NCBI GenBank assembly: GCA_023663805.1 | Contig: JAMPGR010000001.1 | Span: 156,255 to 220,254 of the forward strand | Origin: Clostridium sp. | Lineage (GTDB): Bacteria > Bacteroidota > Bacteroidia > Bacteroidales > Muribaculaceae | Reading direction: 5' to 3' | Length of the DNA: 64,000 nt | Made by a program: the position numbers and the translations under genes | Notes under the pieces: model-generated | What the model was told of the DNA's origin: nothing | Databases searched by the model: none | What the model saw: only the letters and a program-made list of their open reading frames with translations | Shown: positions 55,603 to 63,043 of the stretch, piece after piece | How the letters are laid out: each line of letters opens with the position of its first letter | Position numbering within the stretch: the stretch's first letter is position 1

Positions 55603-56535
55603 TCAGGATAAGACGAAAGTAACGACGAAAAACAACAGGGTGTAGAGCAGAACGTTGACGGCCGTCATCCCGAGCAGGGGGTTGAGCTTTTCGGGGCGGA
55701 GCGAGGTCAGACGCCACCACAAGACGCTGTGGACAACGAGGTAGAGAGCTGGAACAAACCAGGTCGCAATCCCGAATGACCACCATGTGTGGGCCATCAG
55801 CGCCGCTCCGAAATAGCCGTTTGTCAGATAACAGCCCGACATCGCCCGTCGTCCGAGAATGACCGCGAGGGTCTTTTTCCCGACAGCCTTGTCGTCGTCG
55901 CGGTCGCGGTAGTTGTTGACGATCAAGACGTTCGAGATCATCAAACCGAGCCCGACCGATGCCAGGGCAACCCATAGATTCCAGCCGCCGGACTGGAGAT
56001 AGAAGGTCAGGTTGACCGGAATAATCCCGAAAAAGAGCATGACGGCGACCTCGCCCAGGCCGTGGCGCGACAGCGGAAAGGGTCCGGCGCTGTAGGCGAA
56101 CACTCCGAGAGCGATGACTGCCCCGGCGAAAATCAGCCACCATCCGCCGAAGAGGATCAGCAGCGAACCGATTGCGCAGGCGACGGCGAGCGTTATGAAG
56201 GTCGCGTTGCGCATCTCCGCCGGAGTTATGTCGCCCTCGGTCACGCCGCGGCGCGGACCGATACGCCCCGGGCGGTCGAGACCGGCGCGGAAGTCGTAGT
56301 ATTCGTTTGCGAAATTCGAGGCGATTTGTGCCGTCACGGCGAAGAGAAGGCAGAGCAGGGCGGGAACCCAGCAGAAACAGCCGTAGGCGACGGCGTAGCC
56401 CGAGGCGAGCAGAACTCCGGCGACGGAGACCGGGAGCGTCCTGAGACGCATGGCTTCGATCCAGGCCCGGACCGGGGCCGGGTGTGAGCCGGACAGCGGC
56501 CGGCTGTCGTGCGGGAGGTTATTGTCGTTTGTCAT
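55603..56535 (-). CDS. menA: 1,4-dihydroxy-2-naphthoate prenyltransferase
   Basis: AMRLRTLPVSV, QIASNFANEYYDFRAG.D, YSAGPFPL and NNYRDRDDD..VGKKTLAV. Confidence 0.93.
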   Translation of the reverse strand: MTNDNNLPHDSRPLSGSHPAPVRAWIEAMRLRTLPVSVAGVLLASGYAVAYGCFCWVPALLCLLFAVTAQIASNFANEYYDFRAGLDRPGRIGPRRGVTEGDITPAEMRNATFITLAVACAIGSLLILFGGWWLIFAGAVIALGVFAYSAGPFPLSRHGLGEVAVMLFFGIIPVNLTFYLQSGGWNLWVALASVGLGLMISNVLIVNNYRDRDDDKAVGKKTLAVILGRRAMSGCYLTNGYFGAALMAHTWWSFGIATWFVPALYLVVHSVLWWRLTSLRPEKLNPLLGMTAVNVLLYTLLFFVVTFVLS

Positions 56536-58307
56536 TTTTGTTTGTTCGGTTTGTTGTTTGGTCTGTTTGCGCGGCGGCGGTGCGATTTGAACCCGCGGTG
56601 GCGGTCGGCGCGGCTGGCCGGTTCGTCGCCGGAGAATCGTCGCCGGTTTCGGGTGGAGGGTTTGAAATGGGGGTGTTTCGGCGACTGCGGTTCGTTAGGC
56701 TGCGGCTCCGCTTCGGACCCGGGGGGAGTGTCGGCCGCCGGTCCGGCGGGAGATTCGGCCTGGGGGGAGTCCTCTCCGGGAAGAAGCCCGAAACAGCGGA
56801 GCACGGCCCGGCGTATGCGCTCGGCCGGCTCTCCGTCGCGGCGCAGGATCGCGAGGATCGCGCCGACATATTCGTCGCGTCCGCCGGCGATACCGCAGAG
56901 TTGGGCGACATTGCTCGACGACACCATCGATTTCTGGTTGAAGACTCGGAGTATAGAGTTGTAGTCTCTCGTCTCGGCGTAGCGCCGGAACTCGCGGCAG
57001 TAGTTTTCGTAGAGCCCGCGGGCGTTCAGTTCGATCATCAGTTGTTCGAGATGCTGCTCGAGCATATTGATGTCTGAGAACCGTCCGTCAGTCCGGTATT
57101 CCATGAAACGCTTGACGCGGTGGCGCGTATGCTGGAGCGCCTGCTGGTGGACATTGGCCTTGAAGAGGTTGACGATTGTCCGGCTGACATGACTGAAGAC
57201 CGAGTCCTCGTTTTTCCCGTTCGAGGCGGCGACGGTCCGGACAACCTCCTCGAGCATCAGTATATTTTCGATTTCGGCAACCTCCGGAACGAAGATCTTC
57301 TTCCGGCGGAGATATTCGACCTCGCCGGCGTCGCGTCGATCGCGGTCGACGATACCGTGGGAGTCGAGATGGTGGAAGGTCGCCAGGTCGTTGAAGGTCC
57401 TCGTCGACTCGATTACCTTGTTGCAACTGCCGAGGGGCTGTACGGTGTAGTCCTCGAAAATCAGCGGATAGAGTTTCGCGTCGATAGAGCGTTCGGCGTC
57501 TCCTTCGATAAACAGGATCGGTTTCCGGCTGCCGAGGATGGCGAGGTAGACCTGGTCGGGGATGACGCCGTTATGGGGGAGGATGTCGTAGTCCCAGGTC
57601 ATCGAGGCGATATCGCAGTCGCGCACCCAGACGATCGGGGCCCCGGTCCGTGAGACTGCGAATTCGAGGTCGTGGGTGACGTAGACGAACGTGCAGTCGG
57701 GGCGTGTCAGTTCGAGGCGGTTCCAGAGCGAGGCGGTCAGCGACGGATGGAGAAACATGTCGGGGTTGTCGACGAAGATGATGCTTTTCGGCCGAGCGTA
57801 ATAGATCGCGGCGAGATAGTAGAGCACAGCCTTCTCTCCCGTAGAGAGTCTCAGCGAGGAGTAGGAGCCGGTGTCGTCGCCGCGGCCGAACAGAATCTTT
57901 CCGCTCTCGATCAGGACGCGGTTGTCGGGGAAGACCTCCTGCCAGTGGGTCATGACGTGGTCCAGAGGAGTGCCTCCGATCGAGGCTCCGGGGAATTCGT
58001 CGCGGTTGAATTTGTAGGTCAGCAGGTTTATCATTTCGTCGTGCATCAGCCGCTGGAGAAGATCCTCGAGATCCGGCTGGCGTGTCGAGGTCGCGTTAGG
58101 GCTGGTCGCGTGGTTATCGTCGCCGAAGATCGCGTGGAGCGCCGAGACGCGGTATGAGTTCGGCGCGGCGTCGTCGGCCGCGCGCCGTGCGAAGCGGGTC
58201 TTGCCGGCGCCGTTGGCGCCGATGATGACCAGGCGTCCCGTTGCGGGGGTTATGACCAGGGGGTCCCCCTGGCGTCGCGGCGGGAGGGTAATGGTCCGGG
58301 GGGTCAT
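56532..58307 (-). CDS. ABC/AAA_21-type ATPase fused to DUF4435 (TOPRIM-like) domain
   Basis: Probable start MTPRT at 58307. Walker A GANGAGKT, signature LSTGEK, Walker B IIFVDNPD, H-loop YVTHD; then FIEGD, PLGSCNKVI, GIVDRD and EIEN. Confidence 0.82.
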   Translation of the reverse strand: MTPRTITLPPRRQGDPLVITPATGRLVIIGANGAGKTRFARRAADDAAPNSYRVSALHAIFGDDNHATSPNATSTRQPDLEDLLQRLMHDEMINLLTYKFNRDEFPGASIGGTPLDHVMTHWQEVFPDNRVLIESGKILFGRGDDTGSYSSLRLSTGEKAVLYYLAAIYYARPKSIIFVDNPDMFLHPSLTASLWNRLELTRPDCTFVYVTHDLEFAVSRTGAPIVWVRDCDIASMTWDYDILPHNGVIPDQVYLAILGSRKPILFIEGDAERSIDAKLYPLIFEDYTVQPLGSCNKVIESTRTFNDLATFHHLDSHGIVDRDRRDAGEVEYLRRKKIFVPEVAEIENILMLEEVVRTVAASNGKNEDSVFSHVSRTIVNLFKANVHQQALQHTRHRVKRFMEYRTDGRFSDINMLEQHLEQLMIELNARGLYENYCREFRRYAETRDYNSILRVFNQKSMVSSSNVAQLCGIAGGRDEYVGAILAILRRDGEPAERIRRAVLRCFGLLPGEDSPQAESPAGPAADTPPGSEAEPQPNEPQSPKHPHFKPSTRNRRRFSGDEPASRADRHRGFKSHRRRANRPNNKPNKQK

Positions 58308-58909
58308 AGTTCGACGTCGGCCGCTCCTTCGCGGACAATAGAGGGTGATGACGAGTCGGAGAGGTCGACGACCGTTGTCGGGACGCCGGGAGTGTGTCCG
58401 CCGTCGATCATCAGGGGGACCGTCGCGGCGAAGGTCAGGGAGACCGCGTCGGGGTCGGAGGCCTCTTCGGCGGGGAGCGGGACAGAGGTCGTCAGCAGCG
58501 GGTTCCCGAGCGCTTCGGCCAGCGCCAGCGCGACCGGCGAGGCGGGAATGCGTATCCCGACCGTCCGGCGCTCGCGGAAAATCTTCGGGAGCGTGAGGGC
58601 CGCCGGCAGCAGGAATGTGACCGCCCCGGGGAGATACTGCTTCAGCATCCTGAAGGCCGCGTTGTCGATCCGGGCATATTCGCTCGCTTCGGAGATTCCG
58701 GAGCAGATGATCGAGAGCGACTCCTTTTTTGAGGCGATATCTTTGACGCGGGCGAGCCGCTCGATCGCTTTCTTGTCGAGGGCGCTGCATCCCAGGGCAT
58801 ATAGCGAATCGGTCGGGTAGACAACGACCTGGCCGTCGCGGAGAGCCTCGACAGCCTCGGCGATAAAGCGGTCGTTGACCGAGGTCGGGTATATTTTCAG
58901 AATCTTCAT
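58304..58909 (-). CDS. tsaC: L-threonylcarbamoyladenylate synthase (TsaC/Sua5/YciO family)
   Basis: VVYPTDSLYALGC, LSIIC, LPGAVTF, TVGIRIP, LGNPLLTTS and PTTVVDL. Probable start MKILK at 58909. Confidence 0.85.
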   Translation of the reverse strand: MKILKIYPTSVNDRFIAEAVEALRDGQVVVYPTDSLYALGCSALDKKAIERLARVKDIASKKESLSIICSGISEASEYARIDNAAFRMLKQYLPGAVTFLLPAALTLPKIFRERRTVGIRIPASPVALALAEALGNPLLTTSVPLPAEEASDPDAVSLTFAATVPLMIDGGHTPGVPTTVVDLSDSSSPSIVREGAADVEL

Positions 58910-58978
58910 AGTCGATTGTTCGGATAACGTGCTACAAAAATAACAAATAGTTTTGTAAGAATGTCGCGGCCGGGAACG

Positions 58979-59050
58979 AAAAAAGAGATGTCTCACGACA
59001 TCTCTTCTCCTTTAAACCTTTATCTTAATCTAATACTATGAAAAACACAC
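58979..59050 (-). ncRNA. Candidate independently transcribed small RNA (~72 nt)
   Basis: Promoter TACCTTTG (59061-59054); predicted RNA GUGUGUUUUUCAUAGUAUUAGAUUAAGAUAAAGGUUUAAAGGAG-AAGAGAUGUC-GUGA-GACAUCUCUU-UUUU. tsaC has a separate TATTTTTG downstream (58942-58935). Confidence 0.7.
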
Positions 59051-59473
59051 TTGCAAAGGTACGGCTTTAATCTGAATAAAGTGCAAACTTAGTCGAAATT
59101 TAACACTCGTTTAACAATTGGGGATTTCGCCTCCGCCCGGATGCCATAATGATTGGTAACGGGGCATAGAAGAGCGGCATTTGTGACTTTCTGATCAGAT
59201 AATGACGGTGTGGCCTTGCATTTGTATGGGAATTGCACTTTGGTTGGGGACAACGTGTCAGGTGTGTTGGGGTATATTTAACCGCAAAAAATCCAATTAT
59301 GCAGTCGCGATCCGGAAAAATATGTGGCTGCCGGGACTATTTTTGTCGGCTGAAATTGATTTTTCTCTGAAAAAATTAGTAATTTCGCAACGGCATAACT
59401 CTGCGCTACGCGACAGCGCCTGTGGTGCCGCTATTAAAACCGATACCAAATATTCAATCAGATTACTTAAACT

Positions 59474-63043
<3,570 letters not shown>

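Follow-up and report, generated by a model that had tools for sequence, protein, structure and literature searches.

A FopS/GibS-family small RNA gene between tsaC and the pyruvate:ferredoxin oxidoreductase gene in a member of the Muribaculaceae

Few regulatory RNAs of gut Bacteroidota are understood at the level of mechanism; FopS and GibS belong to these few. In Bacteroides thetaiotaomicron, where FopS forms a family of paralogous sRNAs (Ruttiger et al. 2025, PMC11697453) and GibS corresponds to BTnc035 (Ryan et al. 2020, PMC7366714), these RNAs pair with translation-initiation regions and block translation, as established for the homologues by EMSA, in-line probing, compensatory mutations, and in-vitro translation (PMC7366714, PMC11697453). 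FopS-10, in particular, pairs beside the start codon of BT_3983, a susC gene, and blocks its translation in vitro, the pairing being confirmed by compensatory mutations, and the RRM-1 protein RbpB relieves this block (PMC11697453). The FopS genes of B. thetaiotaomicron are transcribed from the canonical sigma-ABfr promoter, and the published conservation of the family, assessed by BLASTn with a word size of 28, is within the Bacteroidaceae (PMC11697453).

The gene considered here lies in a window of 64,000 nucleotides, by which we mean the whole stretch of DNA that was analyzed, from a member of the Muribaculaceae whose genome measures 2.58 Mb, has a G+C content of 56.8%, and is 98% complete; a literature search found no sRNA papers on this family. 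A first-pass annotation made from the sequence had proposed a self-contained sRNA gene, equipped with a promoter and a terminator of its own, whose 5' end resembled conserved Bacteroidales sRNA 5' ends. The promoter, the spacer, the hairpin with its GUGA loop, and the U-tract all lie at the minus-strand positions that it gave (Table 1), and the 5' end proves to be the R1 seed of FopS and GibS (RF04319, RF04182). The Rfam search that it suggested, run permissively over positions 58600-59600, returned RF04319 (BTncRNA_FopS) at 58976-59048 (minus) with 53.7 bits and an E-value of 7.5e-7 over model positions 1-71 of 71; the whole-genome search gave an E-value of 4.6e-7 at the same place. This score is 2.3 bits short of the gathering score of 56 bits, and an orthologue of the same subtype in another genome (G006) reaches 59.2 bits, above the cut-off. 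The match to the GibS model RF04182 amounts to 37.3 bits against a gathering score of 115, which leaves the locus outside the full model, and the alignment is confident only over the first ~30 nt, the remainder having low posterior probability. Furthermore, the 34-nt block TTTTTCATAGTATTAGATTAAGATAAAGGTTTAA of the 5' arm, searched with up to 3 mismatches, is present in the host family in 259 of the 401 genomes searched, spread over 24 of 35 genera, and the reversed pattern, used as a control, gave 0 matches. Together with the Rfam E-value, this prevalence places the locus far beyond chance. The segment 59050-58976 (minus) is confirmed as a genuine gene of the FopS/GibS family of sRNAs, a known kind of regulator, and the proposal of a self-contained gene is borne out by the sequence, the RF04319 match, the conserved -7 box, and the covarying stem. 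The annotation had also foreseen that a match to a characterized sRNA would remove the novelty of the call while confirming it; this is what happened, the FopS/GibS match removing most of the novelty.

Table 1. Positions of the sRNA gene, its elements, and the genes discussed with it
Feature	Position	Strand or orientation	Basis or remark
sRNA gene region, promoter through U6 tract	59087-58976	minus	sequence
-33 element TTTG, Bacteroidetes sigma-ABfr-type promoter	59084..59087	minus	sequence
-7 box TACCTTTG, consensus TAnnTTTG	59054..59061	minus	sequence
Predicted sRNA transcript, about 71-75 nt	58976..59050	minus	RF04319 match 58976-59048 and sequence
R1 seed GUGUUUUUCAUAGUAUUAGAU	59028..59048	minus	identical to GibS consensus positions 1-21
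CAU, complement of the AUG start codon	59038..59040	minus	sequence
Strongly conserved 5'-arm extension UAAGAUAAAGGUUUAA	59012..59027	minus	within the 34-nt pattern
Terminator hairpin, GNRA loop GUGA 58996-58993	arms 59008-58997 and 58992-58981	minus	fold
Conserved hairpin tip	58993-59000 / 58989-58992	minus	alignment A1, columns 10-19
U6 tract, intrinsic terminator	58979..58984	minus	sequence
Candidate separate tsaC -7 box TATTTTTG	58935..58942	minus	sequence
tsaC/yrdC	CDS 58909-58304	minus, downstream of the sRNA	PF01300, E 1e-43
nifJ, pyruvate:ferredoxin oxidoreductase (PFOR)	59474-63043	divergent from the sRNA	POR_N, POR, EKR, PFOR_II
321-aa ORF MKNTTIDGSLAVGRT...	C71:34009-34971 (locus L097)	minus	complementary site at its start; no Pfam family

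The promoter is of the type used by the B. thetaiotaomicron FopS genes, with a spacer of exactly 22 nt between TTTG and TACCTTTG (59083-59062, minus). On the minus strand, GUGUGUUUUUCAUAGUAUUAGAUUAAGAUAAAGGUUUAAAGG begins five bases past TACCTTTG, and GUGUGUUUUUCAUAGUAUUAGAU... begins at 59050. Transcription is predicted to start at G59050 or G59048 and to end in or just past the U tract, and the gene would produce a discrete short transcript. Among the orthologues, the TAnnTTTG box is present at 46 of 50 distinct loci, and in 34 of those 46 it stands exactly 5 nt before GTGTTTTT; a TTTG or TTG is found 15-24 nt ahead of the -7 box in 38 of 50 distinct upstream regions, the commonest spacing being 19-20 nt as compared with 22 nt in this copy. 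The promoter spacer, the linker, and the stem vary among the 50 fetched loci. The orthologues had been chosen by their similarity to the 5' block, and the conservation of that block was gauged by its prevalence and by the zero-match control rather than by alignment. A generic scan for sigma-70 promoters and terminators found no element at the sRNA locus, an expected outcome for a scanner that includes no model of Bacteroidetes promoters and for a stem with no more than 3-4 G-C pairs.

The annotation's statement that no ORF occupies the sRNA strand holds in substance. The only listed minus-strand frame at this place starts with a GTG at 58996, within the hairpin, and is an upstream extension of the tsaC frame; as the tsaC orthologues begin at MKI(L), which corresponds to the ATG at 58909, this ORF was dismissed as an artefact. 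A small ORF of 10 codons on the opposite strand (ATGAAAAACACACTTGCAAAGG...) was also rejected because its downstream sequence is the non-conserved promoter spacer. In the ~240 nt separating the sRNA promoter from the nifJ leader (59100-59340), no convincing ORF is seen and the permissive Rfam scan gave no match, its other result being a chance-level match to STnc50 at 59441-59492. On the other side, a 752-aa minus-strand frame (56532-58790) overlaps tsaC at its 3' part, in a different reading frame.

At the 3' end of the RNA, the hairpin stands out both in folding energy and in its evolution. The fold of the 78-nt RNA has an energy of -21.2 kcal/mol as compared with -11.3 +/- 2.4 kcal/mol for dinucleotide shuffles (z -4.1), and 0 of 200 shuffles were as good. 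In an alignment of 42 distinct orthologous hairpins, 95.6% of the cells can pair vs 69% in shuffles, compensatory changes on both sides are seen in 11 of the 12 stem pairs, and the covariation score is 0.765 vs 0.23 for shuffles and 0.09-0.20 for slid controls. The alignment was anchored by hand on the loop after the hairpins had been located by folding, a procedure with some bias toward structure; the slid controls speak for a real covariation signal. Most orthologues have a T run after the hairpin, which is short or interrupted in a few. At the hairpin tip, the sequence GU[C/U]-G(U/C/G)GA-[G/A]AC is near-invariant in the 42 orthologues, the other parts of the stem covarying freely, and this conservation exceeds what intrinsic termination requires.

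The 5' arm of the RNA is AU-rich, extends over about 39-40 nt, and is predicted to be only about half unpaired (ensemble mean 0.53). Its R1 seed matches the FopS consensus at 20 of 21 positions, the sole difference being an A at position 12 in place of a weakly conserved g. In the extension UAAGAUAAAGGUUUAA that follows, AAGAU agrees with the GibS consensus and AAGGUU with that of FopS; this extension may be an extended seed or a protein site. In some copies from genus g11 (L055, L059, L061, L064-L067), UAU replaces the anti-start CAU, a change that keeps the pairing with AUG through a G.U wobble and leaves the rest of the 5' arm as it is.

The host genome carries three further RF04319 copies, all above the cut-off (80.3, 59.9, and 58.5 bits) and each with CAUGG in its seed, its own TAnnTTTG box, a hairpin, and a U tract. 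At the scale of the host family, every genome searched (151 of 151) and every genus (35 of 35) has an RF04319 match, the number per genome being 1-10, and 30 of 151 genomes have one in an order sample made of one genome per family across the order. The RNA family is therefore clearly wider than the Bacteroidaceae of its published conservation. Within it, the copy studied here belongs to a distinct subtype. The block TTTTTCATAGTATTAGATTAAGATAAAGGTTTAA, with its CAUAG, occurs almost always once per genome, and most of the listed matches have 0 mismatches; being single and conserved in this way, it makes this copy an orthologue of a single-copy CAUAG subtype, which is distinct from the multicopy CAUGG genes. 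The multiplicity of the family as a whole, together with the partial FopS-like sequences present in a few phage records such as that of Bacteroides phage BX-TP2, and the phage copy of FopS already remarked on (PMC11697453), could evoke a selfish or phage-spread repeat, the remnant of a mobile element with no regulatory role in the host. We hold this extremely unlikely in view of the single-copy state of the CAUAG subtype, of the housekeeping neighborhoods of these genes, and of a functional-looking promoter and a covarying terminator that have been kept across 24 genera. In the host genome, all four copies neighbor housekeeping genes, namely PFOR and tsaC, the gene for the POR gamma subunit and that for a PCMD lipoprotein, malate dehydrogenase and carA, and two RNA methyltransferase genes; no SusR gene was found beside any of them.

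Two of these four FopS-type genes adjoin genes for 2-oxoacid:ferredoxin oxidoreductases, which may be a coincidence; the best-scoring paralog (C11:1074822-1074891, minus, L001) lies just after the POR gamma-subunit gene. Likewise, nifJ neighbors the sRNA in five lineages, that of the present genome and four others (L007, L074, L087, and L091).

The proximity of tsaC deserves closer consideration, as the terminator ends only 67 nt ahead of its ATG and the RNA could in principle be a cis-acting tsaC leader or attenuator, in which the hairpin would set the read-through into the gene. The arrangement recurs in at least two other genera, tsaC being found 100-130 nt downstream of the sRNA in the present genome, in L006 and L007, and in part of genus g24; in L006 and L007, the RNA lies directly ahead of tsaC and its first 40 nt are those of this copy without any change, in spite of a TsaC protein of only 60% identity and of dissimilar flanks. 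Moreover, the seed has a 10-bp match at the tsaC start, with a duplex energy of -15.9 kcal/mol when the 39-nt arm is placed on a 70-nt region. Such pairing is not clearly above chance, since about 6% of the crude gene starts pair at -14 kcal/mol or better and 39 of about 1900 do so at -16 kcal/mol, with the reservation that this yardstick was obtained with a 29-nt seed and that seed and region lengths differ from those of the tsaC figure; the value for nifJ, the other neighbor, is -12.3 kcal/mol and equally unremarkable. In most genera, the same RNA is found beside unrelated genes or at a distance from tsaC, which lies 750-800 nt away in the other g24 loci and in those of g23 and g26, and is not nearby in most other genera. 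The orthologous sRNAs thus adjoin different genes in different genera and, conversely, the element is absent at the tsaC orthologues of L008-L012. The closest relatives of TsaC, all at or below 61% identity, come from Paramuribaculum, Muribaculaceae MAGs, "Bacteroidales bacterium M3", and a MAG labeled Barnesiella. In addition, no alternative anti-terminator pairing is evident, and the candidate box TATTTTTG, of which a similar version sits between the sRNA terminator and tsaC in L007, suggests that tsaC would not depend on read-through. The varied neighborhoods, the absence of the element at L008-L012, and this second -7 box all lead to an autonomous sRNA gene rather than a tsaC leader, and the leader explanation appears very unlikely to us.

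What the RNA would act on was addressed with RNAduplex on 1898 gene starts derived from crude gene calls. The first-pass annotation had taken the RNA for a trans-acting repressor of initiation regions, able to act broadly on Met-Lys-Lys starts and exemplified by secE, rplJ, and skp. The kind of regulator was correctly seen, judging from the B. thetaiotaomicron homologues and, for this organism, by homology with them; the named targets are not supported by the analysis. Indeed, secE (42191+), rplJ (44284+), and skp (24184-) share only the 8-9-nt core AUGAAAAA, and their duplexes of -9.4, -6.6, and -5.9 kcal/mol are equaled or surpassed by ~56%, 92%, and 96% of the crude gene starts, respectively. 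The annotation had itself suspected that the 8-nt core was unspecific, and 58 of the 1898 crude genes begin with ATGAAAAA. A broad action on Met-Lys-Lys starts finds no echo either, as shuffling the seed does not weaken the pairing with gene starts: the energies of the real seed average -9.9 kcal/mol and 39 starts lie at -16 kcal/mol or lower, a number comprised in the range of 12-82 given by five shuffled seeds, so that no signal emerges. The start regions of 12 SusC-type genes yield -4 to -16 kcal/mol with either seed type, which is similar to the background and in no way special. Altogether, no statistically supported target of this sRNA was found in silico.

In an ungapped scan for complements of the sRNA 5' end, the sole outstanding non-self site was CTGAATTTAATCCTATGAAAAACACAA on contig C71 (minus), which is complementary at 23 of 27 positions and located at the start of a 321-aa ORF (Table 1). 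This ORF is sporadic, occurring in 7 of the 101 genomes searched in the family and in none of the 4 from its own genus, and the site is missing from its homologues; for these reasons, it was discarded as a conserved target. A fifth, weak RF04319 match in the genome, of 21.9 bits, was rejected as an RNA gene since it is the antisense of this same protein start. An amidase-like gene follows the ORF, and the region may be a prophage.

Regarding the protein partner described in Bacteroides, a search with the PF00076 (RRM_1) profile gave no match in the 98%-complete host genome, the B. thetaiotaomicron control being positive. Within the host family, only 5 of 101 genomes have this domain vs 112 of 151 in the order sample, and a cross-tabulation shows that 10 of the 30 FopS-positive genomes of this sample are devoid of RRM_1. 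RNAs with an R1 seed are common without an RbpB-type partner, and the antagonist arm of the published model cannot be general. With no RRM-1 protein in the host, the antagonism exerted by RbpB in Bacteroides is probably not operating here. Such RbpB-independent persistence fits the fact that FopS-10 represses on its own in vitro (PMC11697453).

These observations bear on whether the RNA, although real, might act mainly through protein binding, sponging, or another non-antisense route, the 5' arm and the hairpin tip then being protein sites. The conservation of the 5' part reaches well past the 21-nt R1 seed, conservation at the upper end of the hairpin goes beyond the needs of an intrinsic terminator, the target predictions gave no signal, and in Bacteroides the 5' part is also an RbpB binding site (PMC11697453), all of which would agree with such a route. 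We nevertheless judge it unlikely, for the known class of partner, RRM-1, is absent here, the homologues repress translation in vitro without any protein, and the anti-start CAU is kept or exchanged for the wobble-compatible UAU.

We favor, as probable, an independent gene for a trans-acting sRNA of ~73 nt that belongs to the "R1-seed" family of FopS and GibS and, by homology, masks start codons. According to this scheme, the ~73-nt RNA would be made from its own promoter of the Bacteroidetes housekeeping type (TTTG / TACCTTTG) and its transcription would end at an intrinsic terminator consisting of the GNRA-capped stem and the U tract. The AU-rich arm of ~40 nt, with its CAU, would then pair around the start codon of target mRNAs, and the paired arm would keep the ribosome off, leading to translational repression. 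Antisense masking of start codons is taken as the most likely mechanism in this organism because the seed, the architecture, and the promoter are all homologous to those of RNAs known to act in this way.

The locus reveals no new kind of regulator, and its interest lies in distribution and context. FopS-type RNAs, together with their type of promoter and their terminator, occur universally in a second abundant gut family, in all 151 genomes searched, and a single-copy subtype with a GibS seed has remained almost unchanged across 24 genera where the RbpB-type antagonist is mostly absent. The host family accordingly offers a natural test of whether these RNAs function without RbpB, and the CAUAG sRNA is a conserved candidate for the first sRNA studies in Muribaculaceae-like bacteria. 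More tentatively, and as a possibility to which we give somewhat less than even weight, these single-copy RNAs could constitute a distinct orthologous lineage of "short GibS-type" R1-seed sRNAs with a near-invariant arm of ~39 nt, present in about two-thirds of a family that almost lacks RRM-1. Should this be true, start-codon-masking R1-seed RNAs would form a system that spans the order and is independent of RbpB, the split between GibS and FopS would be older than the Bacteroidaceae, and the extension and hairpin tip would owe their conservation to a further partner or a conserved core target.

Compared with the two described systems, the RNA combines features of both. As in FopS, it is a predicted RNA of ~65-75 nt with a canonical sigma-ABfr promoter (TTTG / TAnnTTTG), one of several paralogs in the genome (four in this host), and its R1/R1' seed stands at the extreme 5' end, the arm opening with GUGUUUUUCAU.GUAUUAGAU. 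A single-stranded 5' stretch is followed by one Rho-independent terminator hairpin with a G-GA type loop, for a length of about 65-70 nt in the FopS description, and the covariance-model match spans the full length. It differs from FopS by its CAUAG, with an A at position 12 where FopS has a G, by a 5-nt insertion (UAAGA) relative to the RF04319 model, and by the single-copy state of this subtype. The host, too, differs, as it lies outside the Bacteroidaceae, the sole group with published conservation, and its genome has no gene for an RRM-1 protein of the RbpB type, the class that associates with FopS and antagonizes it; complementarity to SusC starts was not detected in it either. As for GibS, the first ~30 nt are almost its consensus, CAUAG and AAGAU included, the long AU-rich 5' arm recalls the 38 single-stranded nucleotides of GibS, and the GUGA loop is that of its first hairpin. 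In contrast, GibS measures ~145 nt and carries a second seed (R2) and more structure, whereas the RNA described here stops after the first hairpin; its promoter is of the canonical TAnnTTTG type and not the non-canonical PM2 type of GibS, which is induced by GlcNAc; and GibS adjoins the glycogen operon that it represses, whereas this gene lies between tsaC and PFOR. The junction between the two halves summarizes this dual character: the UAAGAU after the seed is GibS-like, and the RNA then runs straight into its terminator, as FopS does.
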